Notes: a model not told the origin generated them from the letters alone. 64,000 nt of DNA from Treponemataceae bacterium (GCA_963677895.2 CAXXGJ010000012.1:1-64000); one strand, 5' to 3'. Shown: positions 15,469 to 64,000, numbered from the stretch's first letter. Numbers and translations are program-made.

Positions 15469-15971
15469 AAGCGATTTCATTCAGGAACCGTTCCTTCGTC
15501 GTGCGGTCCATTCTCGTGCTCGTGTACATCGCCGTCGTCATCATCATGCTTATGACGGGCAAGCGGCATACCATCCTGATCGACAACAAGGATTCAGAGG
15601 ACGGCAGCGTACTGGCCATCGATGGCATGTCGGTCCAGATCGACAGCCAGGAAGCCCTGGAATACTACCCGGGCGACCGTGACAAAGCCGTCGTCCAGGG
15701 GCAGAAACACAAGGTCAAGGTGGAGATTTTCGCCGACGGGAAAATCGTCGAGACCGCCTTCAGCGTGCCGCTCGGTCAGGACATGGTGCTTCTCGAGGTG
15801 CCCAAGCTGATAGCCGGCGTCGAGCCCTATCTCAAGCCCTTCACCGTTCTCCAGGAACAGGATTCCTCTCCTGCGGTGGATTCGCCGCAGAGCATCCAGT
15901 TCGGCGGCGATTCGCCCGCCGTGGACGAAACCGCGCTCGAAGTTCCTCCCGACGCGGTGCTGCTGCAATAA
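15465..15971 (+). CDS. Membrane-anchored hypothetical protein (DUF6672-like), last gene of the DUF3798 operon
   Basis: N-terminal TM, GKRHTILIDNK motif, ATGA coupling. Confidence 0.65.
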   Translation: MKAISFRNRSFVVRSILVLVYIAVVIIMLMTGKRHTILIDNKDSEDGSVLAIDGMSVQIDSQEALEYYPGDRDKAVVQGQKHKVKVEIFADGKIVETAFSVPLGQDMVLLEVPKLIAGVEPYLKPFTVLQEQDSSPAVDSPQSIQFGGDSPAVDETALEVPPDAVLLQ

Positions 15972-20896: not shown

Positions 20897-22467
20897 ATCC
20901 CTTCACTCCCATTCCGGTTCATTTGGCTTTCACCGAGGCCCGACGCGTAGCCGAGAACCCGTTCCTGGCTGGCATCCTCCCTGGAGAGGGAGGCGACAAA
21001 TCTTCTTTCATGCATGACATAGAGTCGATCGCTCATGGAAAGCAGCTCGGGAAGATCGGAGGATATGAGGATAATCCCCTTTCCTTCCCGGCACAGGGCG
21101 TTCATCTGCTGGTACATCTCCAGCTTGGCCCCTACATCGATTCCTCTGGTGGGTTCGTCGAGGATGATGATTTTACCTCTCCGGGCAAGCCATTTCGCTA
21201 GAACCGCCTTCTGCTGGTTTCCGCCGCTCAGCGTGGCGATGTCTGCCGAATCCGAGGGGCACTTGATGGACAGTCTCCCTATGTAATCAGCGGATACGGC
21301 GGCCTGTCGGCGACGATCGACGATGCCGAAACGGGAAACCCAATCGAGAATGGTAATCGTTATGTTATGAAGAACCGATCTGCCCGAGATGAGCCCATGG
21401 TCCTTCCTGTTCTCCGGTACCATGCCTATCCCCAGGTCTCGCGCGTGGCGGGGTGAGTTGACCAAAACCTCGGTACCGCTGATTTTCATCCTTATTTCCG
21501 GGTCAGGATCGGCGCCGAAGGCTTTTCGGGCCCATTCCGTTCTTCCAGCCCCAACAAGTCCGGCCAACCCGACGACCTCGCCCTTGCGAAGCGTCAGGAG
21601 AATCCCCTCAGGGCCGGATACGCCGTCTTTCGCCTCCAGAAGAATCTCTCCGGGGCTTACGGCCTCTTTCGGATAGTGGTTGCCGATGGACCGTCCGACC
21701 ATGCGGGAAATGAGTTCGGGAAGAGAAAGCTCACCCGCCGGTCCGCTGTACACGCTTTTCCCGTCCCGCATGACTGTCACGCGGTCGGCTATTCGTGAAA
21801 TCTCCTCGAGACGATGGGATATGTAGAGAATGCCGACTCCCGCCTTTTTCAGGGTTTCTATCTTTCCGAAAAGGAGGTTGATTTCTGTTTCCGTCAGGGA
21901 TGCCGTCGGTTCGTCCATCAGGATAAAACGGGCATTGCGGGAAAAGGCTCGGGAAATTTCCACAAGCTGTTGTTCCGCCATGCCGAGATTTCCTGCCAGT
22001 GCGCTCGGGTCAAGAGAGAGGCCAAGGGTGGAGAAGACCTCGCTCGCTTTCCTATGGAGCTTCTTTGGGGACATGACGAATCGGCCGACCATCCTTTCCC
22101 TGCCCAGGAAAAGGTTGTGAGCCACCGAGAGCCAGGGCACGAGACTCAGCTCCTGGTAAATCGCCGCGATGCCCGTCTCCGAAGCGGCCCTTGGATCCTT
22201 GAGGTGGACCTCATGCCCGTCAAGCAGGATTCGCCCCGAATCGGGTTGAAGCGCCCCGCTCAGGATCTTGAGGAGGGTAGACTTACCGGCGCCGTTCTCG
22301 CCCAGGATCGCGTGTACTTCTCCCCTTCGCAGGGAGAAGGAGACATCGTCCAGGGCCTGGACGCCGGGGAAGCCCTTGGATATTCCCTCAACCGAAAGCC
22401 CCGCGGGGAGCCCCGCAGGGCTCCCCGAAGCTCCCTGCGGAGTCCCGAGGCCATCGTTGTCTGACAC
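20893..22467 (-). CDS. Sugar ABC ATP-binding protein (RbsA-like)
   Basis: GENGAGKST, MDEPT, YISH, LSGGNQQK, DEPTRGIDVGAK. Start uncertain (GTG 22467 or ATG 22491). Confidence 0.9.
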   Translation of the reverse strand: MSDNDGLGTPQGASGSPAGLPAGLSVEGISKGFPGVQALDDVSFSLRRGEVHAILGENGAGKSTLLKILSGALQPDSGRILLDGHEVHLKDPRAASETGIAAIYQELSLVPWLSVAHNLFLGRERMVGRFVMSPKKLHRKASEVFSTLGLSLDPSALAGNLGMAEQQLVEISRAFSRNARFILMDEPTASLTETEINLLFGKIETLKKAGVGILYISHRLEEISRIADRVTVMRDGKSVYSGPAGELSLPELISRMVGRSIGNHYPKEAVSPGEILLEAKDGVSGPEGILLTLRKGEVVGLAGLVGAGRTEWARKAFGADPDPEIRMKISGTEVLVNSPRHARDLGIGMVPENRKDHGLISGRSVLHNITITILDWVSRFGIVDRRRQAAVSADYIGRLSIKCPSDSADIATLSGGNQQKAVLAKWLARRGKIIILDEPTRGIDVGAKLEMYQQMNALCREGKGIILISSDLPELLSMSDRLYVMHERRFVASLSREDASQERVLGYASGLGESQMNRNGSEGI

Positions 22468-51093: not shown

Positions 51094-51128
51094 GCCAGCC
51101 TTTCCTTTGATCGCTTCGATTGCATCTA

Positions 51129-51917
51129 TCAGTTCGACTGCCTACGGCAATCGCGGATGTAGTTCATCGTCTGCGCGGCACCCATCGCCATGAAGCTGAT
51201 GTCGTCGCCGCAGGATATGAAATCCACGCCCCGCTCCATCCACTCCCTGATGAACTTTCTGTCGCCCGGACCGATCGAGACGCCGCAGGGCTTGCCTTCC
51301 TGCTTGCAGATGCGGACGATCCTTTCATAGAGCGCGATGACCTCGGGATCCCCAAGGCGACCCAGTTTGCCTATGGAAGCGGAGAGATCGTTGGGGCCGA
51401 TGATGACGGCGTCGAGACCTTCGACGGCGAGAATTTCGCGCAGATTGTTCACCGCGTCGACATGCTCGATCTGGACGATCCTGAGAAAGGACTCGTCGGC
51501 CTTGGCCAGATATTCGTCCATGGGAATCATGCCGTAGCGTATCGCCCTTCTGGGGCCGAATCCGCGGACGCCCCTGGGAGGGTAGAGGCAGGCTTCGACC
51601 GCCTTCTTCGCTTCGCCAGCCGTGCAGACCATCGGGATTATGATGCCGTCTATGCCCATTTCGAGGACTGGCTTGATCAGGATCGGATCGTTGCCGGCCA
51701 CCCTGACGAAGGCTGCGGCGCCGGCGCCGTTCGCGGCCACTATATGGGCGAGCAGTTTTTCCTTGTCGAAAGGACCGTGCTCGGCGTCTATCCAGAGAAA
51801 GTCGTAGCCGAAACCGGCCATGGCTTCCGAGATGGAAGGATCGGTGAGGAAGACATGACCGCCGATGACGAGCTTTCCGCCGGCGAAGGCTTCCGAAATA
51901 GTTCTCGCTTTATCCAT
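51129..51917 (-). CDS. HpcH/HpaI family class II aldolase
   Basis: DFLWIDAEHG, YPPRGVRG, QIE, IGPNDLS. Confidence 0.92.
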   Translation of the reverse strand: MDKARTISEAFAGGKLVIGGHVFLTDPSISEAMAGFGYDFLWIDAEHGPFDKEKLLAHIVAANGAGAAAFVRVAGNDPILIKPVLEMGIDGIIIPMVCTAGEAKKAVEACLYPPRGVRGFGPRRAIRYGMIPMDEYLAKADESFLRIVQIEHVDAVNNLREILAVEGLDAVIIGPNDLSASIGKLGRLGDPEVIALYERIVRICKQEGKPCGVSIGPGDRKFIREWMERGVDFISCGDDISFMAMGAAQTMNYIRDCRRQSN

Positions 51918-51952
51918 TTTTCGTTCTTTTCCTTGAGCGAACCATCTTGTAT

Positions 51953-51967
51953 ACCTGTACTACAGGT
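51953..51967. promoter_or_regulatory. Putative GntR/FadR operator
   Basis: ACCTGTA-C-TACAGGT palindrome upstream of the hpcH-gntR operon. Confidence 0.6.
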
Positions 51968-52071
51968 TGATGCTATCACCGCTTCGCGATTGTGTCAAAT
52001 TTTTTTTTGTTGGCGGAGCCCGGCAAACATCCGTCTTTACATTCTCTCGAATCGCCCTTTATTATGGATCC

Positions 52072-52866
52072 ATGTCCATAAAACCCGAGCACGCGGCTCC
52101 TCGACCATCGGGATTCATCCAGTCGGTCGACCGCGCCCTGACAATACTCGAATATTTCTCGAAAGACCGGCCCGAAGCCGGCGTCTCTGATATCGCCCGC
52201 GGACTCCATCTCAACAAAAGCACGGCTTTCGGGCTTCTATGCACCTTGGAACGCCGAGGCTACGTCGAACAGAACCCCGACAACGGCAGATACAGGCTGG
52301 GGCTGAGGACGCTGGAGCTGGGCAACGCCAAACTCGCCGGCTTCGATGTCGCGGGCGTCGCCCATCCGATCCTCAGTGGCCTGGTGGACCAGCTTGGGGA
52401 AACGGCCCATCTCGCCGTGTACGACAGGGGCGAAGTCGTCTATATCGACAAGGTGGAGGCTGACAATACCCTCAAGATTTCATCCTTCGTCGGAAAGAGA
52501 AATCCCTCTTACTGCACCGGGGTAGGGAAGTGCCTCCTCGCCTTCCAGCCGGCGGCCGAGATTGAGCGCGTCATAGGCCACGGCCTTTTGGCGCGGACCA
52601 GCAAGACAATCGTCGATCCGGAAGCGTTCAAAGCGGAACTCGCCAGAGTCCGCAGGGAGGACCGAGCCCGCGACGACGAGGAATTCGCCGAAGGGCTTAT
52701 CTGCTCCGCCTCGCCCCTGCGGGACAGCAACGGGCTCGTATGCGCGGCCATCAGCGTTTCCGCCCCCACGATCCGATCGGATCCGGAAAGGGTGGCCTTT
52801 GTCGATCGCGCGGTCAGCGAGGCCGCGAAAGCCATCTCGAAAGCCCTCGGCTATAAATCCAATTGA
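52072..52866 (+). CDS. IclR family transcriptional regulator
   Basis: IQSVDRAL, LNKSTAFGLL, YCTGVGKC, DDEEF; ATG 52072. Confidence 0.92.
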   Translation: MSIKPEHAAPRPSGFIQSVDRALTILEYFSKDRPEAGVSDIARGLHLNKSTAFGLLCTLERRGYVEQNPDNGRYRLGLRTLELGNAKLAGFDVAGVAHPILSGLVDQLGETAHLAVYDRGEVVYIDKVEADNTLKISSFVGKRNPSYCTGVGKCLLAFQPAAEIERVIGHGLLARTSKTIVDPEAFKAELARVRREDRARDDEEFAEGLICSASPLRDSNGLVCAAISVSAPTIRSDPERVAFVDRAVSEAAKAISKALGYKSN

Positions 52867-52913
52867 GATTTTAAAGTTTCCGCTTGACAGGTTTGAGAAA
52901 GGGCTATTATCAT

Positions 52914-52950
52914 GTTTATATATAAGAACGATGTGCTACAATGTAGCACA
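52914..52950. promoter_or_regulatory. Tandem operator (putative IclR site) at the hydrolase-operon promoter
   Basis: GTTTATATATAAGAAC plus perfect TGTGCTACA-A-TGTAGCACA; TTGACA at 52884. Confidence 0.65.
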
Positions 52951-53013
52951 ATATGAATACCGTGATGTAAATAGCATATCAATACGGGGAAATCCCGTTG
53001 GGAGGATGTTGTT

Positions 53014-53853
53014 ATGGCAGAACAGAAACAGGGCAATCCTGAGATCGGAAAGACAATCCAGGCGGGCGGCATCGCCGTCAACTATCACGACATGGGCTCG
53101 GGCGATCCCGTCGTCTTCGTCCACGGTTCCGGACCCGGCGTTACCGCCTGGGCCAACTGGCGCCTCGTCCTTCCCAAGCTCGCGGCCACCCGCAGGGTCA
53201 TCGCCCTGGACATGATCGGCTTCGGCTACACCGAGCGACCCGCCGGCATACAGTTCAACATGGACGTATGGGGCAAGCAGCTCAAGGATTTTCTCGACGC
53301 CATGAAGCTGGACAAGGTGGACTTGGTGGGCAATTCCTTCGGGGGAGGCCTCGCTCTCTACATGGCCATCCACTATCCCGAGCGCATCCGCAAGGTCGTC
53401 CTCATGGGAGCCATGGGCGTCCAGTTCCCCATCACCGAATGGCTCGACAAGGTCTGGGGCTATGAGCCTTCCTACGAGGCCATGTCCGAGGCCCTCAATC
53501 ACTTCGTCTCGAACAAGGCCATCATCACGCCGGATCTGGTGAAGATGCGCTACGAAGCCTCGATCCGTCCCGGCTACCAGGAAAGTTTCGGCGCCATGTT
53601 CCCGGCGCCGCGCCAGCGCAGCGTGGACGCCATGGCCTGTGCCTCGGCCGACATAGCTTCCATCAAGCACGACACCCTCATCATCCACGGCCGCGAGGAC
53701 CAGGTCATTCCTGTCGAGACCTCCCAGCTGCTCTTCAGGCTTATCCCCAACGCCCAGCTCCACATGTTCGGCAACTGCGGCCACTGGACACAGATCGAGC
53801 AGAACGCGCGCTTCTGCGCAGTGGTCGAGTCCTTCCTCGCGGGAGTCTTCTGA
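53014..53853 (+). CDS. Meta-cleavage product C-C hydrolase (XylF/TodF/CumD-like)
   Basis: HGSGPGVTAWANW, GNSFGG, HGREDQV, CGHWTQIE. Confidence 0.9.
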   Translation: MAEQKQGNPEIGKTIQAGGIAVNYHDMGSGDPVVFVHGSGPGVTAWANWRLVLPKLAATRRVIALDMIGFGYTERPAGIQFNMDVWGKQLKDFLDAMKLDKVDLVGNSFGGGLALYMAIHYPERIRKVVLMGAMGVQFPITEWLDKVWGYEPSYEAMSEALNHFVSNKAIITPDLVKMRYEASIRPGYQESFGAMFPAPRQRSVDAMACASADIASIKHDTLIIHGREDQVIPVETSQLLFRLIPNAQLHMFGNCGHWTQIEQNARFCAVVESFLAGVF

Positions 53854-54641
53854 TGGCCCTCTCACCTGCTGAAATCGTCGCGGCCGCCGACGCCCTCGAC
53901 GCCGCCGCAAGAACCTGCGTTCCCATCGAGAAACTCACCGTTACCTACCCGGCCATCGACGTCGACGGCGCCTATGCCGTGCAGATGCGCAATGTCGAAC
54001 GCGCGCTGGCCGCGGGCAGAAAAATATCCGGCAAGAAGATCGGCCTCACCTCCAAGCCCATGCAGGACATGTTCGGTGTCACGACTCCCGACTTCGGCCA
54101 CCTCTTCTCCGATATGGAAGCGGCCGGCCGGCGCATCGAGCGCGCCACGATGGTCCAGCCCAAGGTGGAGGCGGAGATAGCCTTCGTCCTCGCCCGCGAC
54201 CTCGACATGGCCGGCGAAATCACCGCGGCGGACGTGCTCGCCGCGACCGACTATGTTGTCGCGGCCCTCGAAATCGTGGACAGCCGCATCGGCAACTGGA
54301 AAATCGGTTACTGCGACACTGTTTCCGACAACGCCTCCTCCGGCAGGTACGTGCTGGGATCAGTGCGGAAAAAGATCGCCGAAATCGACCTCAAGGCCGA
54401 AGTCATGAATTTTTCCCTGAACGGCGAGCCCAAAAACTCGGGCAAGGGCACCGACGTCCTCGGCGATCCCGCCTACTGCGTGGCCTGGCTGGCCAACTCC
54501 ATGCGGAAGTACGGCACCATGCTCAAGAAGGGCGAGGTCATCCTTTCGGGCGCGCTCTCCGCGGCCATCGGCGCCGGCAAGGGCGACAGCTTCAGGGCCG
54601 ATTACTCCACGCTCGGCTCCGTCGAAGTCGCTTTTTATTAA
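53853..54641 (+). CDS. mhpD: 2-keto-4-pentenoate hydratase
   Basis: GKKIGLTS, PDFGHL, KVEAEIAF, LEIVDSRI, DNASSG, ILSG. Confidence 0.88.
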   Translation: MALSPAEIVAAADALDAAARTCVPIEKLTVTYPAIDVDGAYAVQMRNVERALAAGRKISGKKIGLTSKPMQDMFGVTTPDFGHLFSDMEAAGRRIERATMVQPKVEAEIAFVLARDLDMAGEITAADVLAATDYVVAALEIVDSRIGNWKIGYCDTVSDNASSGRYVLGSVRKKIAEIDLKAEVMNFSLNGEPKNSGKGTDVLGDPAYCVAWLANSMRKYGTMLKKGEVILSGALSAAIGAGKGDSFRADYSTLGSVEVAFY

Positions 54642-54654
54642 GAGGAACGGAATA

Positions 54655-55532
54655 ATGGCACAGAAGATCAAGGCGGCCATCATTGGCCCAGGCAATATCG
54701 GCACCGACCTCCTCATCAAGTTGAGGAGGAGCCCCTTCCTCGAGGTAGCCTACGTGGTGGGCGTCAAGGAATCCCCCGGCATAGAGATCGCCAAGGGTTT
54801 CGGCATCCCCACCACCATCAGGGGCATCGATGAGATTGCTCGAGGTCGAGGACATTAGGATAGTGTTCGACGCCACAGGCGCCGGACCGCACATGATCCA
54901 CGCCCCCGGGCTCAAGGCCGCCGGCAAGATCGCCATCGACCTGACGCCTGCCGCCGTCGGCCCCTATGTCGTGCCCTCGGTCAACTTCAACGAGGAAATC
55001 TTCAAGCTCGACAACGTCAACATGGTCACCTGCGCAGGGCAGGCCACCCTCGCCCATCGTCTACGCGGTCAACCGCGCCGCCGACGTCTACTACGCCGAG
55101 GTCGTCTCCTCGATCTCCTCCAGGAGCGCGGGGCCGGGCACGCGGCAGAACCTTAACGAATTCATCGAGACGACGACGAAGGCTCTGAGAACTGTCGGCG
55201 GCGCCGACCAGGCCAAGGCCATCATCGTCCTCAATCCCGCCGAGCCTCCCATATTGATGCGCAACACCATCCTCTGCAGGGTGCGCAGGCCCGATCTGGC
55301 GGTCATCCGCGAATCGATCGACAGGATTCTCGCCGACGTGAAAATCTACGTTCCCGGCTATCGCTTCCTCGTCGAACCGATTCTCCAGGGCGACACCGTC
55401 ACGACCGTCATCGAAGTGGAAGGCCTGGGCGACTTTCTGCCCAAACACACGGGCAACCTGGATATCATAAACGCCGCCGCCGTGGCGGTGGCGGAGAAAT
55501 TCGCCCGGCGCATTCAGGAAGGCAAACGATGA
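54655..55532 (+). pseudogene. mhpF: Acetaldehyde dehydrogenase (acetylating); two frameshifts, possibly sequencing errors
   Basis: IGPGNIGTDL / [21 protein letters not shown] / SAGPGTR..GNLDI lie in three successive frames; breaks near 54835 and 55049. Confidence 0.85.
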
Positions 55533-56556
55533 GCAAGGTCTACATAACCGACACGAGCCTGAGGGACGGCAGCCACTCCGTCTCGCATCAATACACGAGC
55601 GCCGATGTAGCCGCGGTCGCGGGGCGGCGCTCGACGATGCCGGCATCGACATCATCGAGGTGAACCATGGCGACGGCCTCGGCGGTTCCTCGCTGACCTA
55701 TGGCTATTCGCTGGAAAACGAGCTCGACCTCGTCTCAGCGGCGGCCAGGGTAGTCAAGAGAGCGCGCATCGCCGTCCTCCTCGTGCCCGGCATCGCCACC
55801 CTGGATCTCCTCGAGGAAGCCCAACGCCGAGGCGCCAGCGTCGTGCGCGTGGCCACCCACGTCACGGAGGCCGACGTTTCCGAGGAATACATCAAAGCGG
55901 CCAAGAAGATGGGCATGTTCGTCGTGGGCTTCCTCATGATGGCCCATATGGCCGACACGGCCAAGCTCGTGGAGCAGGCCCTCATCATGGAATCCTATGG
56001 CGCCGACGTGGTCTATGCCACCGATTCGGCCGGAGCCCTTCTGCCCGACCAGGTAGGCGAACGCGTCGCGGCCCTGAAAGCCGCACTCCAGATTCCCGTC
56101 GGCCACCATGCCCACGACAACCTGGGCTGCGCTGTCGCCAATTCGCTCGCTGCCGTGAAAGCGGGCGCCACCTATGTGGACGGCTCCCTCGGCGGAATGG
56201 GCGCCGGCGCTGGCAATTCAGCCACCGAGATGCTCGTAGGCGCCTTGAAGAAATCCGGCGCCGATGTCGCCGCCGACCTCTTCAGAACCATGGACGCGGC
56301 GGAGAAAGTCCTTCTTCCCATCGTGGCACAGAAGGGCAAACCCCTCCCGCGCCACGACTCCAACTCGCTCATCATGGGCTACGCTGGCGTCTATTCCAGC
56401 TTCATGCTCCACGCGAAGAAGGGCGCCGAGCGCTTCGGCGTCGACGTTCGCGACGTCCTTATCGAACTGGGGAAGCGCAAGGCTGTGGGCGGTCAGGAAG
56501 ACTGGATTATCCAGGTGGCCTACGACTTGGCCAAAGCTGCGGGAAAGCCCGTTTGA
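55529..56556 (+). pseudogene. dmpG: 4-hydroxy-2-oxovalerate aldolase; one frameshift, possibly a sequencing error
   Basis: ATG 55529 DTSLRDGSH, frameshift near 55622, then HGDGLGGSS, HAHDNLG, GYAGVYSSF, GGQED. Confidence 0.85.
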
Positions 56557-56593
56557 ATTGAGAGAGGCGGCGCGGGGGAACCCGTTTGTACGC

Positions 56594-56629
56594 GATTATA
56601 TATGTGAACAATGTGCTACATAGCGGCAC
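56594..56629. promoter_or_regulatory. Second copy of the tandem operator, upstream of dctP
   Basis: 28 of 36 positions identical to 52914-52949 by manual alignment. Confidence 0.65.
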
Positions 56630-56656
56630 TTGTAGGGTATTCAAGGAGGAATCATC

Positions 56657-57629
56657 ATGAAGAAAGGGATTATCGCTCTTCTCGTCCTGGCGATGCTGTT
56701 CGGCGCGACCGCCGGCGCTTTCGCCCAGAAGGAACTCAAGCTCGGCCACATCGCCGCGCCCAACACCGCCTACGACAACTGGGCCAAGGAATTCAAGGCG
56801 CAGGTCGAAGCCGGCACCAACAACAGGTATAAGATCGTCATCTATGGCGGCGGCCAGCTCGGCGACTCGGGCCCCCCTCATGGAAGCCATGCAGGCCGGG
56901 AACCTTCAGTTCGCCGTCATCACCTCGGGCGACGCCAGCCAGTTCATCAACGCCATCAACGTCCTCGACATGCCCTTCCTGTTCAGGAGCTGGGATCACG
57001 TTGAAAAGTTCATCGCCTCGAAGACGGCCAGGGACCTCCTCGACCTCTCCGATCAGTATGGTCTCAAGTCGCTCTCCTTGATGCCCCGCGGCTACCGCCA
57101 CGTGACGAACGCGAAATTCCCCATCAACAAGCCCGAAGATCTCAAGGGACTCAAGATGCGCATCAGCGAAAGCCCCGTCCTCGTCGAGGCCTTCAAGGCG
57201 ATGGGCGCCAACGCGCAGGCCATGGCTTGGTCAGAAGTGTACACCGCTCTCCAGCAGGGCACGGTCAACGCTCATGAGAACACCATCATCACCACCCGCG
57301 ACTACAAGATCAACGAAGTGCAGAAATACGTCTCCGAGACTGGACACGTCTTCGCCATGGCTACGCTCATGGCTTCGGGCGACTGGTTCAAGAAGCTTCC
57401 GAAGGCGGATCAGGACATAATCCAGAAAGCCGCCACGGACGCGGCCTACAAGCTCGGACTGGAGCAGGAAGCCAACGAGGCTAAGGCCAAGGCCGAACTC
57501 ATTTCCAAGGGCATGGTCTTCAACAGCCTCGATACCGAACCCTTCGTCAAGGCTGTCCAGCCCGTCATCAACAAGTACGCCAAGGGCGACGTCAAGAAAT
57601 TCTACGATGCCATCCTGGCGATAAAGTAA
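56657..57629 (+). pseudogene. TRAP substrate-binding protein (DctP); one frameshift in a C6 run
   Basis: Signal peptide..GGQLGD | LMEAMQAG..GLKMRI..HEN; break at 56872-56877. Confidence 0.85.
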
Positions 57630-57657
57630 TCCAGACCGACAAATATTTTTCTTGGGT

Positions 57658-57692
57658 GGCTGTCCTGGTTGCGACCAACTTCCAGGACAGCC
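57658..57692 (+). other. Intercistronic stem-loop after dctP
   Basis: GGCTGTCCTGG ... CCAGGACAGCC. Confidence 0.6.
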
Positions 57693-57725
57693 TTTACTCG
57701 CCTGCCTGACGCAAGGAGTATTTAT

Positions 57726-58223
57726 ATGAAAGCGTTGCTGAAAACCAGCGACATTCTTGACAAGATCTGCGGCTGGGTCATCGTAGCGCTGTTCATGTTG
57801 ATGACGATTACCTACGCCACGCAGATTTTATTGAGATATGTTTTCGGAACCGGCCTGATGTGGACGGAAGAACTAACCCGCTACGCCGATATATGGGCCG
57901 TGATGATCGGCGCGGCGATGATCGCCAAGCGCAGGAGCCATATCAACGTGAGCGTGCTTGAGGAATACCTGCCCAAAGCGTCCAGGGCTTGGCTCCTCGT
58001 CTTCCAGCAGCTTCTCTCCCTCGTATTTTTCGTCGCGATGTTCTTCATCGCCTTTAAATTCATAAAGCTCGCCGGCACCCAGGTGAGCACCAACATGCGC
58101 ATACCCAAGCGCTGGGTATATTGGATATTCCCGCCCGCCTTCGGAGTGTTCATATTCCAGACCCTTGTCGGAACCCTCAAGGGAGCGCAAGAAGCGAAGA
58201 CCGCCCAGGAGGCCAAATCATGA
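57726..58223 (+). CDS. TRAP small permease (DctQ)
   Basis: QILLRY, WTEELTRY, HINV; AAGGAG RBS. Confidence 0.88.
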   Translation: MKALLKTSDILDKICGWVIVALFMLMTITYATQILLRYVFGTGLMWTEELTRYADIWAVMIGAAMIAKRRSHINVSVLEEYLPKASRAWLLVFQQLLSLVFFVAMFFIAFKFIKLAGTQVSTNMRIPKRWVYWIFPPAFGVFIFQTLVGTLKGAQEAKTAQEAKS

Positions 58224-59484
58224 CCCTGCTGCTTTTCGGATCCGTCCTTGTCCTCCTGGCGGTAGGCGCTCCCATCGTCACGGCGATGGGCGGCTCAGCC
58301 CTTCTCACCATATTCGCGTCGGGCATCAATCCCACCACGGCTGTCCAGCGCTTTTTCGCGAGCATCGATTCGGCGGCCCTCTTGGCCATCCCCTTCTTCA
58401 TCCTCGCCGGCGACCTCATGAACAAGGGCGGACTCGCGAAGCGCCTCATCGGTTTCGCGGGCCTCTTCGTGTCGAAGATTACGGGCGGCATGGGCATGAC
58501 GGCCATCCTCGCCTGCATGCTCTTCGCCGCCATCTCTGGCTCGGGCATAGCCACCGCCGCGGCTATCGGCGGTGTCATGATCTCGGGCTTCAAGGACCAC
58601 GGCTATAAGCCAGCCTACGCGGCGGCCATCGTGGGATCGGCGAGCCCTATCGGCATAATCATCCCGCCGAGCATCGCTTTCATCATCTATGGAACGCTGT
58701 CCAAGGCATCGGTAGGCCAGCTCTACAAAGTCGGCTTCCCCGCAGGAATCATGGTAGGCGTCGCCTTGATGGTCGTCACCTTCTTCACCGCGAAAAAGCA
58801 TAAGATTCCCCGCGAGTCCAAGGGCCTCGGCAGCAAATCCGTCAAGGAAGTGGTGATCGACACAGCTTGTCGCCCTCGGCACGCCCGTGATCATCAGTGG
58901 GCGGCGTCTTTCTCGGCGTCTTCACCCCCACCGAATCGGCGGTCGCGGCTGTCATTTATTCCATTATTATCGGCGTTTTCGTGTTCAAGGAAATAAAGCT
59001 CAAGGAGCTGCCCGGCATATTCCTCCAGTCGGCCATCAGCTCGGCGGGCATCATGATCATCATCGCGGCCGCTTCCCTCTTCGCCTGGACCATGGTCTAC
59101 ATGCAGATTCCCCAGAAAGCCTTCGAGGCCGTGCTTTCCGTCGGCATGAGCAAATACACCCTCCTTTTCGTCGTCAATATCATTGTCCTGATAGCGGGCA
59201 TGTTCATGGAGTCGGGCTCGATACAGATCATCCTCGTGCCCCTCCTGCTGCCTATCCTCGAAGTGCTGCAGATCGACCTCGTGCACTTCGGCATCATTCT
59301 GACGACCAACCTCGCGATCGGCATGCTCACCCCTCCCTTCGGACTGACTCTCTTTACCGCGTCGCGCGTGCTGAAGGCTGATTTAAAGGATACTATCAAG
59401 GAAGCTTGGCCCTTCCTGGGCGCGATGGTCATAGTCCTGATGATCATCACCTATGTGCCGGCCTCGGTGATGTGGATTTTGTGA
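58220..59484 (+). pseudogene. TRAP large permease (DctM); two apparent +1 insertions
   Basis: LLAIPFFILAG, ISGSGIA, IIPPS | ALGTPVII | GGVFLGVFTPTES, TPPFG; breaks near 58865 and 58897. Confidence 0.85.
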
Positions 59485-59506
59485 GAAGGCGCCTATTCCC
59501 CGTCAT

Positions 59507-60313
59507 TCATCGCTTGAGGCGCTTTTCCAGCGTCCTGACGAGGAGGGATAGGCTGAGCGTGAGGCAGAGGTAGAAGAAGGCGACGGCGTTGTAAGTCTCG
59601 AAAAACTTGAAGGTGGAGGCCGCGTAGACCTTGCCAAGCTGGGTGATATCCTGGACGCCGAGGGCGGAAACGAGCGATGAATCCTTGATGATGGCGACGA
59701 ATTCGTTGCCGAGGGCGGGCAGGACATTCCTGATAGCCTGGGGCAGAACGATGCGCCACATCACCTGAAGGTGCGACATCCCGAGGGCTTCGGCGGCTTC
59801 GACCTGGCCTTTGTCCACGCTCTCTATGCCCGCGCGGAAGATTTCAGCGATGAAAGCCGAGTAGCCGAGGGTGAGGGCCAGGACGGCGCGCGTGGCGAAA
59901 TCGAAGCTGCGCGCCTCGACACGGCCGATGAGCCCCGACGCGATGAGCGGTGTCAGGATGACGTTGAGCGCTTGAGCGAGAGCGGGAGCGCCGACGAAGG
60001 CTATGTAGTACAGTATGACGAGCATGGGAAGGCCGCGCACCAGCTCGATGTAGAAGGTCGCCACTTCGCGAGCGGTGCGGAGCCGCGACGAACGCAGGAG
60101 CCCCAGCCCGAGGCCGAATAGTATCGACGCGGCATACGCGATGAGCGATACCATCAGCGTGACGCCGAGACCGCGCGACACGGCGCCGAATATGACGCGA
60201 TAATCGGCCGCGGCCATGGCGGACGCGAGGAGCCAGCCCCCGAGGCCTACGATGGCGACGAGCCACCAGGGGATGCGATCCAGTGCCGTCTGCTTAATTC
60301 GGGGTCTGCGCAT
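59507..60313 (-). CDS. Polar amino acid ABC permease (HisM/GlnP-like)
   Basis: YIELVRGLP, AEIFRAGIESVDKGQVEAAEALG, LPQA, IKDSSL. Confidence 0.92.
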   Translation of the reverse strand: MRRPRIKQTALDRIPWWLVAIVGLGGWLLASAMAAADYRVIFGAVSRGLGVTLMVSLIAYAASILFGLGLGLLRSSRLRTAREVATFYIELVRGLPMLVILYYIAFVGAPALAQALNVILTPLIASGLIGRVEARSFDFATRAVLALTLGYSAFIAEIFRAGIESVDKGQVEAAEALGMSHLQVMWRIVLPQAIRNVLPALGNEFVAIIKDSSLVSALGVQDITQLGKVYAASTFKFFETYNAVAFFYLCLTLSLSLLVRTLEKRLKR

Positions 60314-62173
60314 AAGATGGTCCTTTTACCTGCATTGGTCCCTCGCAGGGCAATTCGATGAAAAAGACGGTATTGCCCGGTTCGCTTTCGCACCATATCC
60401 TGCCGCCATGAACTTCCGTTATATGTTTGCAGATCGACAGGCCAAGGCCGGCATGTCCGTTTCCGCTTTTTTCGCTCAGGAAGGGCGTGAAAAGACTGGC
60501 GATCTTGGCAGGCGGGATGCCGGGGCCGCTGTCCCGTACCTGCAGGAGGGCGCTATTGTCGGCCTGCTTCCGAAGTCGGACTACGATGGAACCACAGCGT
60601 CCCGCTACATCGAGCGCATTCATGAGGAGATTGATCAGAACTTGTTTGATTCTGGCGGGATCTATACGCAGCATCACCGGTTCGCTGGGTATATCGGCTT
60701 CCAGGCTGATGCCGAGACGTTCCGCTTCGTATTCAAGCAGGACAAGCGAATCCTTGATGACCGCGTTGATGTCATGCGGGCTCAATGCCGACGAATCGAC
60801 GCTCGAAAAGGACAGGAGATTAAGCATGCTTCCATGAATTCGCTTTATCTCATTTCGGATGATTTCGAGCCTTTCACGCGCATACTCGTCGTTCGTCTTC
60901 ATGAGCAGGAGTTCCACATAGTTGGAGATGATGCCGAGAGGATTGTTCACTTCGTGAACTATGCCCGTCGCCAACTGGGCGATGGACGAAGTTCGGTCTA
61001 GGCTTGCTAGATAGTCCCGTGTCGCCCGTTCTTCCGTTACGTCCTGAAGTACGAGGATGGTTCCAAATAGCTGTTTTAGACTGTCGTGGAAGGGTAGGTC
61101 ATCACATTGACGAATCTGCCGTTCGCCGTCGGCCACTGTTTCCATTTCGCCGGCACTCCCGATCTTATGGAATCCATGATCAGCGCCAGTCGTTTATCGC
61201 CGAAACCATTCCGCAGCGCCAAGGCGGTCAGGGGAATAGCCGCCGCAGGTTCTCCCGCCTGTGACGCGGGAATCAGCGTTTTTGGGTCCGTGCAGATAAT
61301 GTCGCAGGCCGATTGATTCGAGAGGTATATTTCGCCTTCCCCGTCGAAAAAGACCGTTCCCAAGGGGAGATTGGAGACAATTTCCTCATTGTACTTTTTG
61401 TATTTCAGCAGGCGGATATTCTTGCTGAACAGTTCTTCCCTCGACTCGTTGAAAGAATAGGCGAGATCGACAATGTCCTCTCGGTCAAGGCTTCTGGCCG
61501 GTTGGGTTTCGACGATTCTTCCCGCTTTTATAATCGATATGATATCAGCGATCCTCAGCACCTCGTCGACGTTGGAAGCCGCATAAAGAACTGCCTCATT
61601 ACCGCTCCGTCTTTCCGCTAAAACGGAATAGAGCACCTGCATTTCGTCGGCGGTAAAGCGACCCGAAGGCTCATCCAGAATAAGAATTCTCGGATTAAAG
61701 GCCAAAGCTCGCCCTAGCTCGATGACGGTGGATTCTATTCTCGCCAGCCGATGCATGGGTAGACGCAGATCCGGATGAAGGCTCCACTTTTCGCAGAGCG
61801 CGAGAATGAAGGCCTCTATTTCATCGCGCATATTGCCCGACGAAAAACCGATGGACATCCTCCCGGCCATGATGTTTTCCCAGGGCAGAAGAGTCGGAAT
61901 GATGTTCTGCGTTTGATGGAAAACGCCAATACCAGCCTGGGCCATAATCTTTGGATTGCGTTTCACCAGGGGGATGCCATCGATGAGAATCTTGCCTCTA
62001 TTGAGGATCATCTTTCCTTCGAGGAGGGAGACGATGCACGATTTACCCGCCCTGCGTTCCCCGATGATGGCGTGCACTTCACCGCTCGCCGCCATCAGGC
62101 TGAACTCGTCGAGCGCTATCGTCTCCCTGTAGGAAGCCGTGACGCCACGGAGCTCAAGTCCTTGCATCGTCAT
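60294..62173 (-). CDS. Sensor histidine kinase: degenerate sugar-ABC ATPase domain + PAS + HisKA + HATPase_c (one frameshift near 61090)
   Basis: GEVHAIIGERRAGKS, ILILDEPSG; PAS-like NEEIVSNLPLGTVFFD..YLSNQSA..VNVMTYP|FHD..GTILVLQDVTE; HEVNNPL, QVLINLLMNA, DSGPGI, GLGLSI. Confidence 0.82.
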
Positions 62174-63533
62174 CCATGCCAAGCTTTTCGAGCTTGTTGT
62201 AGAGGGTTCGTCGCGGTATTCCCAACAGCCGAGCGGCCTCCGTCCTGTTTCCCTTTGCCTTGTCGAGCGCTTCAAGAATCATGTTACGCTCCAATACCTG
62301 CCGTGCCTCACTCATCGAATTCCGGGATGCATCCGATTCCTTTGATTCATCGAGGCAGGAAGCGACTACGTTTCTGCCTATTCCCATCTTGTACTGTTGC
62401 GGAAGATGCCTGGGGCCAAGGTGGCGGCCGTCACAGAAGATGATGGCGCGCTCGATGCAGTTTTTCAGTTCACGGACATTTCCGGGCCAGGGCTGCGCCT
62501 CGAGGATGGCTAGGAACTCATCGTCGATGAGGGGTTCTTCCTTCCCGTAGGAACGCGAGAAATCGGCGACGAAACGTTTCGCGAGAACGGGAATGTCCTC
62601 GATATGCTCGCGAAGAGGGGGAGTCTGGATGCAGATCACCGAGAGCCGGTAATAAAGGTCTTCCCTGAACATGCCTTTTTCGATGAGCGTGTGCAGGTTC
62701 TGGTTGGTCGCCGATATGATCCGGGTATTGGCATTAAGGTCCTTGGTGCCGCCCAACCTGCGGAATTCCCCTCCCTGAAGTATATGAAGGAGTTTCGACT
62801 GGAGACGGATGTCCATATCCCCGATTTCATCGAGGAAGACGCTGCCCTGACTGGCGCTTTCGAAAAGCCCCGCTTTTCGTGCAAGAGCGCCCGTGAAGGC
62901 TCCTTTTTCGTAGCCGAACAGCTCGCTTTCGAGAAGTGTGTCGGGTATCGCGGCGCAGTTGATTTTCATGAAAGGATGGGCGGAGCGCAGGGACTGGTTA
63001 TGTATAGCTTCGGCTACCAGTTCCTTTCCCGTGCCGCTTTCGCCCGTGATGATGACGGAGGCTTCCGTGGGGGCGATGCGCTCGATCGATTCCCGCAGTT
63101 CGCGAATGACCAGGCTTTCTCCGTAGAGGGCGCCGACAGCATGATTGGGAGTTTCCGGCAGCTGATTGGCGCCTGCCAGTTTGCATTGATTCAGCTGGTC
63201 ACGCAGCTTCCTGAAATCCAGCGGCTTGGTGAAAAAGTCCATGGCGCCGTATTTCATGGCCAGCACCGCGGTTTCCACGGACGGGTAACCTGTCATCATG
63301 AAAATCCTGAGGTTGGGCGATATGTCGCGGAGCTCCTGGATGAGATCTAGGCCGCCGCGACCCGGCATGCGCACGTCCACGATGGCTATGTCGGGATGGC
63401 CACCGCTAGTCTGTTCGAGCGCGGAGACGGCGCCGTCCGCCAACATCGTCTGGTAGCCTTCGCTCTGCAGGAGTTCGCCGAGCGAAGCCCTCATGGGCTG
63501 CTCGTCGTCGACGATAAGTACCTTCGTTTTCAT
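62154..63533 (-). CDS. Sigma54-dependent response regulator (NtrC family)
   Basis: REC (IVDD, DVRMP, KP), GESGTGKE, ESELFG, GAFTGA, FLDEIG, WPGNVREL, Fis-type HTH. Confidence 0.96.
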   Translation of the reverse strand: MKTKVLIVDDEQPMRASLGELLQSEGYQTMLADGAVSALEQTSGGHPDIAIVDVRMPGRGGLDLIQELRDISPNLRIFMMTGYPSVETAVLAMKYGAMDFFTKPLDFRKLRDQLNQCKLAGANQLPETPNHAVGALYGESLVIRELRESIERIAPTEASVIITGESGTGKELVAEAIHNQSLRSAHPFMKINCAAIPDTLLESELFGYEKGAFTGALARKAGLFESASQGSVFLDEIGDMDIRLQSKLLHILQGGEFRRLGGTKDLNANTRIISATNQNLHTLIEKGMFREDLYYRLSVICIQTPPLREHIEDIPVLAKRFVADFSRSYGKEEPLIDDEFLAILEAQPWPGNVRELKNCIERAIIFCDGRHLGPRHLPQQYKMGIGRNVVASCLDESKESDASRNSMSEARQVLERNMILEALDKAKGNRTEAARLLGIPRRTLYNKLEKLGMDDDART

Positions 63534-63584
63534 ACCGTGCCGCCAGTGTATACCATTTGGCTCGAAAGGACAAAGGCGAATCGC

Positions 63585-63998
63585 TCAGCGGGGCTTCTTC
63601 TTGGAGTAGGAGTCGATGCCCACGACTACCAGGATGATCAGGCCTTTTATGACATACTGGATGAAGACCGGCACGCCGAGGAGATTGAACGCGTTGGTGA
63701 CGACGGTAAGGAGAAGGACACCTATCATGGCGCCGAGAACCGTGCCTTCGCCGCCGGAAACCGAGGTGCCGCCGATGACCACCGCCGCGATGGCGTCCAT
63801 GTCATAATTCTGCCCCGCGAGAGGCGTGGCCGACGAAAGTCGGGATGCGTAGACGACGCCTGAGATGCCCGCCATAAGGCCGCCGATGAGGAAAGTCATG
63901 ACGTGGTAGAAGTCCACGGAGACTCCGGCAAGCCGCGTCGCTTCTTTGTTGCCGCCGACGGCGCAGCAGTAGCGGCCGAGCTGGGTCTTGGAGAGAAT
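63585..63998 (-). CDS. Sugar ABC permease (RbsC-like), 5' part outside the window
   Basis: GRYCCAVGGNKEATRLAGV, DMDAIAAVVIGGTS, IKGLIIL; frame open to the window end. Confidence 0.9.
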   Translation of the reverse strand: MLSKTQLGRYCCAVGGNKEATRLAGVSVDFYHVMTFLIGGLMAGISGVVYASRLSSATPLAGQNYDMDAIAAVVIGGTSVSGGEGTVLGAMIGVLLLTVVTNAFNLLGVPVFIQYVIKGLIILVVVGIDSYSKKKPR

Positions 63999-64000
63999 GA

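Follow-up and report, generated by a model that had tools for sequence, protein, structure and literature searches.

The minus strand at the end of a 64,000-nucleotide stretch of DNA from a Treponemataceae bacterium (GCA_963677895.2, CAXXGJ010000012.1:1-64000; hereafter the window) encodes a histidine kinase, predicted to be soluble, in which the nucleotide-binding domain (NBD) of an ATP-binding cassette (ABC) sugar importer of the CUT2 family is fused to a PAS-HisKA-HATPase_c core. Its gene adjoins that of an NtrC-type response regulator, and the two-component pair is very likely the sigma-54 switch of the adjoining CUT2 sugar-uptake operon, a sequence-based assignment that follows from the adjacency of the regulator, the linkage to CUT2 genes and the positions of promoter motifs. 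The regulatory wiring predicted in this way is well supported. For the input to the kinase, we propose with evenly divided confidence that the soluble protein would dock as a dimer, by way of its CUT2-type NBDs, on the sugar permease, and that the transporter, once loaded with sugar, would cause the NtrC-type regulator to be phosphorylated; this regulator probably switches on the operon from its sigma-54 promoter.

The kinase gene appears in the window as two minus-strand open reading frames (ORFs), 61076-62173 and 60294-61145, which on ORF reading are one gene in two frames. At the junction the minus strand reads ...acc tac cct tcc acg aca gtc taa; one extra C in the CCC run at 61092-61094 unites the frames, and the protein then runs through T-Y-P-F-H-D (...N-V-M-T-Y-P-F-H-D-S-L-K...). 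The restored kinase has 626 residues if it starts at the ATG at 62173, or 624 if it starts at that at 62167, and the start of its gene overlaps the end of the NtrC-type gene (62154) by 14-20 nt. An initial annotation of the window had joined the ORFs through one restored base near 61090 into a protein of about 626 residues, and had placed the gene in overlap with an NtrC-type gene and downstream of a CUT2 permease gene on the same strand; the frames and the TYPFHD junction bear out the former, and coordinates and Pfam matches the latter.

Pfam profiles matched ABC_tran in the 5' ORF (57.8 bits, cut-off 25; residues 21-170) and HisKA and HATPase_c in the 3' ORF (40.5 bits, cut-off 26.9, and 95.4 bits, cut-off 26.4, respectively), with PAS_4, PAS_9 or PAS matches seen in other members of the family described below. 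In NCBIfam, the N-terminal part of the protein aligns best with positions 6-238 of the 504 of AraG, at 124.9 bits against a cut-off of 689; other CUT2 ATPases (YtfR, XylG, RbsA) were also aligned via their first NBD, far under their cut-offs, and the C-terminal part aligns best with AtoS and ZraS. An AlphaFold2 model of an intact orthologue, computed on a 35-row alignment (mean pLDDT 77.9, pTM 0.42), resolves into an NBD (residues 1-238, pLDDT mostly about 85-95), a helix (243-265), a PAS domain (270-376), a DHp bundle (395-452) and a catalytic domain (463-608). The break of the window gene corresponds to residue 358 or thereabouts, in a beta-strand of the PAS domain, in agreement with its earlier placement inside the PAS fold. 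Foldseek searches related the N-terminal third of the model to ABC NBDs such as LptB and ArtP (target-normalised TM 0.78-0.84) and the C-terminal two-thirds to PAS/LOV kinases and the cytoplasmic domain of ZraS; no solved chain among the matches listed spans both the NBD and the kinase parts.

Kyte-Doolittle means over 19 residues peak at 1.28 in the orthologue, compared with 2.84 in the neighbouring permease. By this measure the kinase is soluble and has no membrane segment, as had been proposed. The protein has the features of a HisKA-type sensor histidine kinase, namely a HisKA domain with its H-box His and a HATPase_c domain with N, G1, F and G2 boxes. The H-box His of HEVNNPL is invariant in 35/35 family members, and so are the residues of the N, G1, F and G2 boxes (N513, N517, D546, G548, G550, F563 and G574-L-G576). 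With every kinase box invariant, we predict an active enzyme.

Full-length fused homologues, on whose existence the initial annotation had made its proposal depend, are found well beyond this genome. Among the 120 best matches to the 5' ORF, 35 are fused proteins of 592-626 residues with ABC_tran, often PAS, HisKA and HATPase_c domains. When a profile of these 35 proteins was searched against 1.84 billion representatives of clusters at 50% identity, 136 of the best 150 representatives covered the profile from position 20 or earlier to position 590 or later in one stretch; at rank 150 the E-value has risen only to about 4e-101, which indicates that the family reaches beyond these 150. The fused gene is present in 8 of 41 genomes of close relatives, the window's own included, and in at least 14 of 401 evenly sampled Spirochaetota genomes (again with the window's own; 13 of the 400 others), representing at least 11 of 153 genera, the phylum counts being lower bounds because three candidates were scored per genome. 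By record title or source name, members come from Sphaerochaeta, from a metagenome-assembled genome (MAG) labelled Treponema denticola and from other Spirochaetota, and outside that phylum from a MAG of candidate division KSB3 and from a cultured gammaproteobacterium of the Vibrionaceae, Thaumasiovibrio subtropicus (WP_087018013.1). The window's genome itself holds a second, intact paralogue (G000:C6:93706-95481), 33% identical to the kinase. A search of genome contigs was dominated by a generic kinase pattern, and of the 80 loci kept only 4 were full-length fusions; the rest, matches to the kinase core alone, were not used. The source records name the proteins only as 'ATP-binding cassette domain-containing protein', 'sensor histidine kinase AtoS' or 'ABC-type multidrug transport system ATPase subunit'. 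We found no paper on a kinase with a fused ABC NBD in the open-access literature and bioRxiv, and passages of PMC12316311 likewise contain nothing on it; neither the family nor its origin or regulatory wiring seems to have been described before. As the proteins are in NCBI and UniRef, InterPro and CDART will show their architecture.

The recurrence of one architecture in full-length proteins shows that the fusion is not a chance finding. A truncated ATPase and a separate kinase misjoined by assembly or gene calling would be compatible with the two ORFs of the window and with the indel errors of its assembly (below), but uninterrupted frames of about 600-660 residues recur across many genomes and contigs of independent origin, a number of which are long or consist of one contig, and both the domain order and the linker sequences are conserved among members; we rejected such an artefactual fusion as vanishingly improbable.

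The frameshift in the window's own copy is a separate matter. The closest public protein, P0001 (624 residues, 96% identical), is the product of a genome of the same genus (G001) and is uninterrupted at the junction, NVMTYPFHDSLKQ; the kinase gene is likewise intact in a second genome of the genus (G002), at 89% identity. Contigs assembled from public sequencing runs, not the raw reads, were compared with the window at the break and over a control stretch of 4.7 kb (54800-59500). Runs X3 to X19 have only small shares of the sampled words, and no conclusion on habitat or strain draws on them; of these, X3 alone was compared, at the break. A contig of run X2, which belongs to the same study as the probable source run, X1, and comes from another sample, has an additional G after 61091 of the plus strand, equivalent to a fourth C in the run on the gene's own strand. 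An intact allele certainly exists at the same locus. A contig of run X20 spans the break at a depth of 2.9 without gaps and equals the window. Contigs of run X1 terminate or start exactly at 61092/61093, and the piece matching the window downstream of the break has a depth of 2.8, compared with 7.4 and 6.2 in its flanks, the pattern expected for one of two variants. Over the control stretch the window has one or two surplus bases at 54834, 55047, 55621 (two), 56872, 58864 and 58896; these six sites are contradicted by contigs of both X1 and X2, and four of the six by X20 as well, and they coincide with splits in genes for an acetaldehyde dehydrogenase, a DmpG-like aldolase, DctP and DctM. These six are errors of the assembly, which is evidently prone to indels, and other frameshifts in this contig deserve distrust.

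A recently inactivated pseudogene, with a real one-base deletion and a system dead in this organism only, would account for the X20 contig, identical to the window across the break, and for the dip in depth in run X1. Against this stand the restoring base in the X2 contig, the six contradicted indels of the same assembly, the intact genes of G001 and G002, and the two halves of the window gene, which are otherwise unbroken and 96-98% identical to the intact orthologue; we regard a pseudogene as a serious possibility that falls somewhat short of an even chance. The break itself is, at about even odds, an assembly error or a real, very recent inactivating allele, one independent contig set being in agreement with the window. 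The initial annotation had restored the missing base and had asked for the frameshift to be confirmed: the intact allele is there in the X2 contig, but the break is not clearly a sequencing error, as both alleles occur in public contigs.

The relationship of the N-terminal domain to CUT2 ATPases is apparent from its motifs. The RbsA-like gene of the window (near 21800-22300) reads GENGAGKS, FILMDEPT and YISH, and the kinase has GERRAGKS and ILILDEPS, with LARIES as the signature instead of LSGGQ and YAAS where the switch His has been lost. These motifs and the NCBIfam alignments agree with the resemblance first noted between the N-terminal 240 or so residues and the first NBD (NBD1) of that ATPase, and with the reading of a lost switch His and a degenerate signature region. 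The phylogeny of the domain was examined with a quick IQ-TREE run (LG+G4) on 131 rows: 45 kinase NBDs, 42 NBD1 and 42 second NBDs (NBD2) of CUT2 ATPases (13 neighbours of the kinase genes and 29 database matches), and two Opp ATPases as the outgroup. Kinase NBDs form one clade (SH-aLRT 98), sister to 20 NBD1 sequences (93) and nested within CUT2 NBD1, with the NBD2 sequences in a separate clade. This topology points to a single origin of the kinase NBDs from a CUT2 NBD1. The kinase is nevertheless not a CUT2 ATPase: it has one NBD, aligned to AraG positions 6-238 only, and a kinase where NBD2 would be.

Within the kinase clade, the three subclades show what reads as a graded decay of the ATPase motifs. 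HK-I (6 rows) has the Walker A motif GEHGAGKS, retains the switch His and has the signature LSlsdR; HK-II (15 rows, including the paralogue of the window's genome) has GEHRAGKS, also with the switch His, and an NBD1-like signature, Ls..qQ; and HK-III (24 rows, including the window) has GERRAGKS, the signature LsriES and YAAS in place of the switch His. The signature of CUT2 NBD1 is itself non-canonical, and that of HK-II resembles it. The most striking change specific to the family is in the P-loop, where the Asn-Gly of 42/42 NBD1 sequences (GENGAGKS) is replaced by His-Arg or Arg-Arg, giving GE[RH]RAGKS in HK-II and HK-III. In the window, the consensus GxxGxGK[ST] is broken by Arg in place of the fourth-position Gly, and the looser GxxxxGK[ST] still describes the motif. 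By contrast, the Walker A Lys, the Q-loop Gln (Q87) and the Walker B Asp (D167) are invariant in 45/45 kinase NBDs and E168 is nearly so, the aromatic residue of the A-loop is kept, and along the domain conservation rises and falls as it does in true NBD1, Q87, P93, N100 and G104 in the Q-loop and helical subdomain included. As an ABC NBD (PF00005), the domain has the profile match, the fold, the Q-loop and Walker B; the Walker A consensus, LSGGQ and the switch His are missing in the window's clade. The label of a degenerate ATPase, as first given, holds for that clade and not for the family as a whole, since two sister clades keep the switch His and one of them a canonical Walker A. On this motif state, the NBD would retain ATP binding, and in the window's clade hydrolysis would be lost or minimal.

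In order to place the fused kinases in their genomic context, we mapped 33 loci with 34 kinase genes by tblastn with the window's own proteins as queries; longest-ORF Pfam scans had picked false opposite-strand ORFs in GC-rich genomes, and the tblastn maps were used instead. Set A comprised 16 loci (17 kinase genes) from relatives and named contigs, and set B 17 loci from 13 other genomes of the even phylum sample. An NtrC-type regulator gene lies directly upstream on the same strand for 17/17 kinase genes in set A and 16/17 in set B, the miss being at a contig end, and by this adjacency (33/34 genes) the adjoining regulator is the predicted phosphotransfer partner. The regulator of the window consists of REC, an AAA+ sigma-54 interaction domain and a Fis-type HTH, and its GAFTGA loop can be read in the translation. 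A CUT2 ATPase or permease gene is present within about 9 kb in 16/16 loci of set A and 16/17 of set B, so that the expected linkage of homologues to CUT2 transporter genes is seen in 32/33 loci, and a Peripla_BP_4 binding-protein gene is usually also present. The transporter genes are either divergent from the regulator-kinase pair or arranged with it in one string, as in the window, where the order is binding protein, GHL10-like protein, ATPase, permease, regulator and kinase. The part of this string beyond position 64000, where the initial annotation had suggested looking for a binding protein and a normal ATPase, holds genes for both. The CUT2 permease is 336 residues long as a whole, its gene reaching contig position 64595 outside the window (L109:186-1196), and it is 60-70% identical to many permeases named ribose permease by their sources. 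There is no solved structure of a homologue of this CUT2 permease.

Sigma-54 promoters were sought as TGGCAC-N5-TTGCW in 598 kb, and the matches show a very strong excess in position. Of the 25 sites with at most one mismatch, 22 both fall outside coding matches and have a same-strand CUT2 gene no more than 2.5 kb downstream. Under a blind criterion of 500 bp, 23/33 loci have a site, compared with 0.043 expected per search window, and most of the misses arise because tblastn overlooked the divergent binding-protein gene that heads the operon. At the window's own locus the site is TGGCATGGGATATGCT, with two mismatches, at L002:4415-4430, 44 nt upstream of the binding-protein gene and 4.4 kb past the end of the window; two orthologous loci of the same genus have one-mismatch sites at the same distance of 44 nt. 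The genome carries two rpoN genes (G000:C2:196638-197123 and G000:C18:581595-582068). The locus thus has the features of a sigma-54 regulon, with a GAFTGA activator, rpoN and a -24/-12 motif at the target, the promoters being predicted ones. The earlier suggestion of a sigma-54 output is supported by the regulator adjacent to 33/34 genes and by the -24/-12 motifs before CUT2 operons.

The proposal that the kinase docks on the permease starts from a kinase that has no membrane or periplasmic part and yet controls the uptake of an external solute, and whose one unusual domain reproduces the very part that normally fits onto CUT2 permeases. Histidine kinases are dimers, and the protein would accordingly offer two NBDs, flexibly linked to the PAS cap helices. 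In what seems the most economical mechanism, the kinase dimer would replace the ATPase on a fraction of the permease dimers. In ABC importers such as MalFGK2 and HisQMP2, docking of the liganded binding protein promotes NBD closure through the permease. Here the sugar-loaded binding protein would close the pseudo-NBD pair, stabilised by barely hydrolysed ATP, and closure would pass through the PAS cap helices to the DHp bundle and switch the kinase. In solved importers, MalK and MetN among them, a C-terminal extension of the NBD is directed away from the membrane, which makes the fusion compatible with docking. We hold these three steps, an NBD pair on the permease, its closure and a DHp switch, with confidence just under even. 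The boldest form of this reading, in which evolution has made a transmembrane receptor out of an ABC sugar importer and closure of a degenerate NBD pair is the input of a two-component system, has a probability somewhat below an even chance.

Several observations weigh against this account. Nearly every linked transporter has its own two-NBD ATPase; it is therefore complete without the kinase, which would have to vie with that ATPase for the permease. If two NBD1-type domains form the homodimer, each Walker A faces a signature of the NBD1 type and not LSGGQ, and such a pairing has no known precedent among CUT2 transporters. HK-I keeps the catalytic motifs and has diverged beside the Q-loop, where P93 is lost, which is a poor fit with a permease-docking groove conserved across the family. 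The PAS domain itself could bind a cytoplasmic sugar or metabolite. As to the promoters, sigma-54-like sites with at most two mismatches number 52, compared with 56.7 in shuffled sequence; with the total at chance, number alone was rejected as evidence and only position is informative. By eye, 32/33 loci have a site that is rightly placed and oriented, a count made after the matches had been seen. One locus (L124) has no CUT2 gene and another (L104) no sigma-54 site, and the window's own copy may be a dead allele, the X20 contig agreeing with its frameshift.

The presence of a dedicated ATPase in every linked transporter except one extra set, together with the soluble nature of the kinase, would also suit an NBD that acts off the membrane as a free cytoplasmic nucleotide sensor or ATP-dependent dimerisation switch, gating transporter expression on energy charge, with any sugar signal arriving via PAS. 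Nucleotide binding is plausible from the retained Walker A Lys, Walker B Asp-Glu, Q-loop Gln and A-loop aromatic residue, and PAS domains commonly bind small ligands. Nothing would bind such a sensor to a single transporter family, yet its NBD derives specifically from CUT2 NBD1 and CUT2 genes are present in all mapped loci but one. Moreover, the Q-loop and helical-subdomain positions, which in ABC transporters serve coupling to the membrane domain, are about as conserved in clades II and III as in true NBD1. We consider an energy sensor unlikely on this evidence. The initial annotation had named a further alternative, a pairing with the real ATPase: the kinase NBD might bind the second NBD of the transporter's ATPase, for example, or some other soluble protein, and report ATPase turnover instead of the conformation of the permease. 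The consensus ATP site of CUT2 ATPases is formed by the Walker A of NBD1 and the LSGGNQQ signature of NBD2, and an NBD1-like domain would for this reason be best complemented by an NBD2; with few exceptions, however, the neighbouring ATPases have NBD1 and NBD2 covalently joined, so that an unpaired NBD2 is not available, and we regard this pairing as quite improbable. Docking on the permease is the reading we carry forward.

Table 1. Positions in the window of the kinase domains and motifs, the frameshift and the flanking genes.
Feature	Position	Strand	Evidence
ABC NBD of the kinase, residues 1-240	61454..62173	-	Pfam ABC_tran, NCBIfam AraG, tree, AlphaFold2
Walker A, GERRAGKS	62039-62062	-	sequence motif
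Walker B, ILILDEPS	61664-61687	-	sequence motif
Linker helix and first part of PAS, to the break	61095..61453	-	AlphaFold2 model of orthologue: helix 243-265, PAS 270-376
Frameshift site, CCC run (GGG on plus strand), four bases in the intact form	61092..61094	-	sequence, orthologue P0001, public contigs
Remainder of PAS, kinase core and stop codon	60294..61091	-	Pfam HisKA 2.8e-10, HATPase_c 3.7e-27
HisKA, H-box HEVNNPL	about 60792-60980	-	Pfam
HATPase_c	about 60345-60662	-	Pfam
NtrC-type response regulator/sigma-54 activator, 459 aa	62154..63533	-	Response_reg 2.1e-27, Sigma54_activat 3e-68, HTH_8 4.2e-15
CUT2 sugar-ABC permease, 3' part, last 137 codons	63585..64000	-	Pfam BPD_transp_2 3e-26; best NCBIfam ribose permease
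Polar-amino-acid-type ABC permease (HisM/GlnP-like)	59507..60313	-	BPD_transp_1 6.4e-27; best NCBIfam GlnP

The polar-amino-acid permease gene downstream of the kinase gene (Table 1) overlaps the kinase gene end by 20 nt at its start, and the locus holds no GlnQ/HisP-type ATPase gene for it. An orphan permease of this kind also follows the kinase in G001 and G002, in the latter with an asparagine synthase gene between the two. An SBP_bac_3 binding-protein gene (L002:4629-5426, contig 68629-69426) lies just upstream of the sigma-54 site of the operon, and such a gene flanks the operon in G001 and G002 too. We considered and did not adopt the idea that the kinase NBD serves the orphan amino-acid permease, as that gene occurs only in the window's genus and encodes a permease of another family.

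Between the binding-protein and ATPase genes of the window's operon lies a gene for a 438-residue cytoplasmic protein (L002:2126-3442, contig 66126-67442). It has no significant Pfam match (a weak one to DUF4015 has an E-value of 0.006), and in the ESM Atlas the closest clusters consist of 'glycosyl hydrolase-like 10' proteins (score 0.97). A glycoside may be what the transporter carries. On the other side of the kinase operon and convergent with it, the window at 51100-59500 carries genes for an IclR-type regulator, an alpha/beta hydrolase, an FAA-hydrolase-family protein, an acetaldehyde dehydrogenase and a DmpG-like aldolase, and after these for a TRAP transporter (DctPQM); the region resembles a cluster for the lower meta-cleavage pathway that has an uptake system of its own.

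Variations on the arrangement were seen at other mapped loci. The paralogous locus L098 has genes for a nucleoside hydrolase, binding protein, ATPase, permease, PfkB kinase, regulator and NBD-kinase, followed by a second binding protein and permease; the notion that this second, ATPase-less pair is a dedicated sensor transporter was dropped, as no comparable pair is evident at the other mapped loci. Two regulator-kinase pairs stand back to back at L005:4941-11791, each facing its own CUT2 operon with its own sigma-54 motif. At L111:5715-8586 and L125:2647-8844, the linked CUT2-like operons have half-size, single-NBD ATPases (tblastn query residues about 20-270). The KSB3 MAG has, at L006:13690-16329, a gene for an 879-residue protein that joins a methyl-accepting chemotaxis signalling domain to a Peripla_BP_4 sugar-binding domain, and a perfect match to the sigma-54 consensus lies in this locus at 15842-15857.

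How kinases without a sensory domain of their own obtain signals from transporters is an active question, and the systems studied so far have a separate kinase and transporter. A kinase that includes the engine domain of a transporter covalently would offer a defined, soluble and dimeric handle on this coupling, for which docking on the permease predicts a simple mechanical input, NBD closure. The family also supplies natural intermediates, from near-canonical to degenerate ATPase motifs, and at least one cultured bacterium carries it. Its description assigns a regulator and a promoter to many otherwise unannotated CUT2 sugar-uptake operons of the Spirochaetota. If the proposed mechanism is true, it would be the first case in which dimerisation of an ABC NBD directly drives a histidine kinase, and one in which a soluble kinase senses an extracellular ligand.

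Several known systems share elements with the one described here. The closest relatives of kinase residues 1-240 are the NBD1 domains of the CUT2 ATPases (RbsA, AraG, XylG, MglA, YtfR), with which they share the Walker A Lys, the Q-loop and Walker B; the kinase differs in having one NBD and not two and an altered P-loop, and in the window's clade also in its LARIES signature and lack of the switch His. The PAS-HisKA-HATPase_c core and the partner, a REC-AAA+-HTH_8 sigma-54 activator, are those of AtoS-, ZraS- and NtrB-type systems. AtoS and ZraS sit in the membrane and take periplasmic or transmembrane input, whereas the NBD-fused kinases have no membrane segment and carry an N-terminal ABC NBD. 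In the BceS-BceAB system, as here, a kinase without its own ligand-binding domain would take its signal from an ABC transporter and control the expression of that transporter. In the Bce systems of Firmicutes, a separate intramembrane-sensing kinase contacts the permease BceB, the transporter is of an FtsX-type, exporter-like kind and the regulator is of the OmpR type; here the kinase is soluble and includes the NBD covalently, the transporter is a CUT2 sugar importer and the output is through sigma-54. The relay of transporter state to transcription by the cytoplasmic ATPase subunit of an importer has parallels in MalK-MalT and PstB-PhoU-PhoR of Escherichia coli. There the contacts link distinct proteins, and the transporter uses the NBD as its working ATPase; in the present system the NBD is a partly degenerate duplicate that forms part of the kinase, and the transporter retains its own ATPase. 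KdpD is a histidine kinase (PMC11018627) whose N-terminal nucleotide-binding domain is functionally tied to the transporter under its control. That domain is not an ABC NBD, KdpD is membrane-anchored, and its transporter, KdpFABC, is a P-type ATPase. Taken together, these comparisons suggest a function that resembles transporter-coupled two-component sensing, a likeness known here by gene linkage (32/33 loci).

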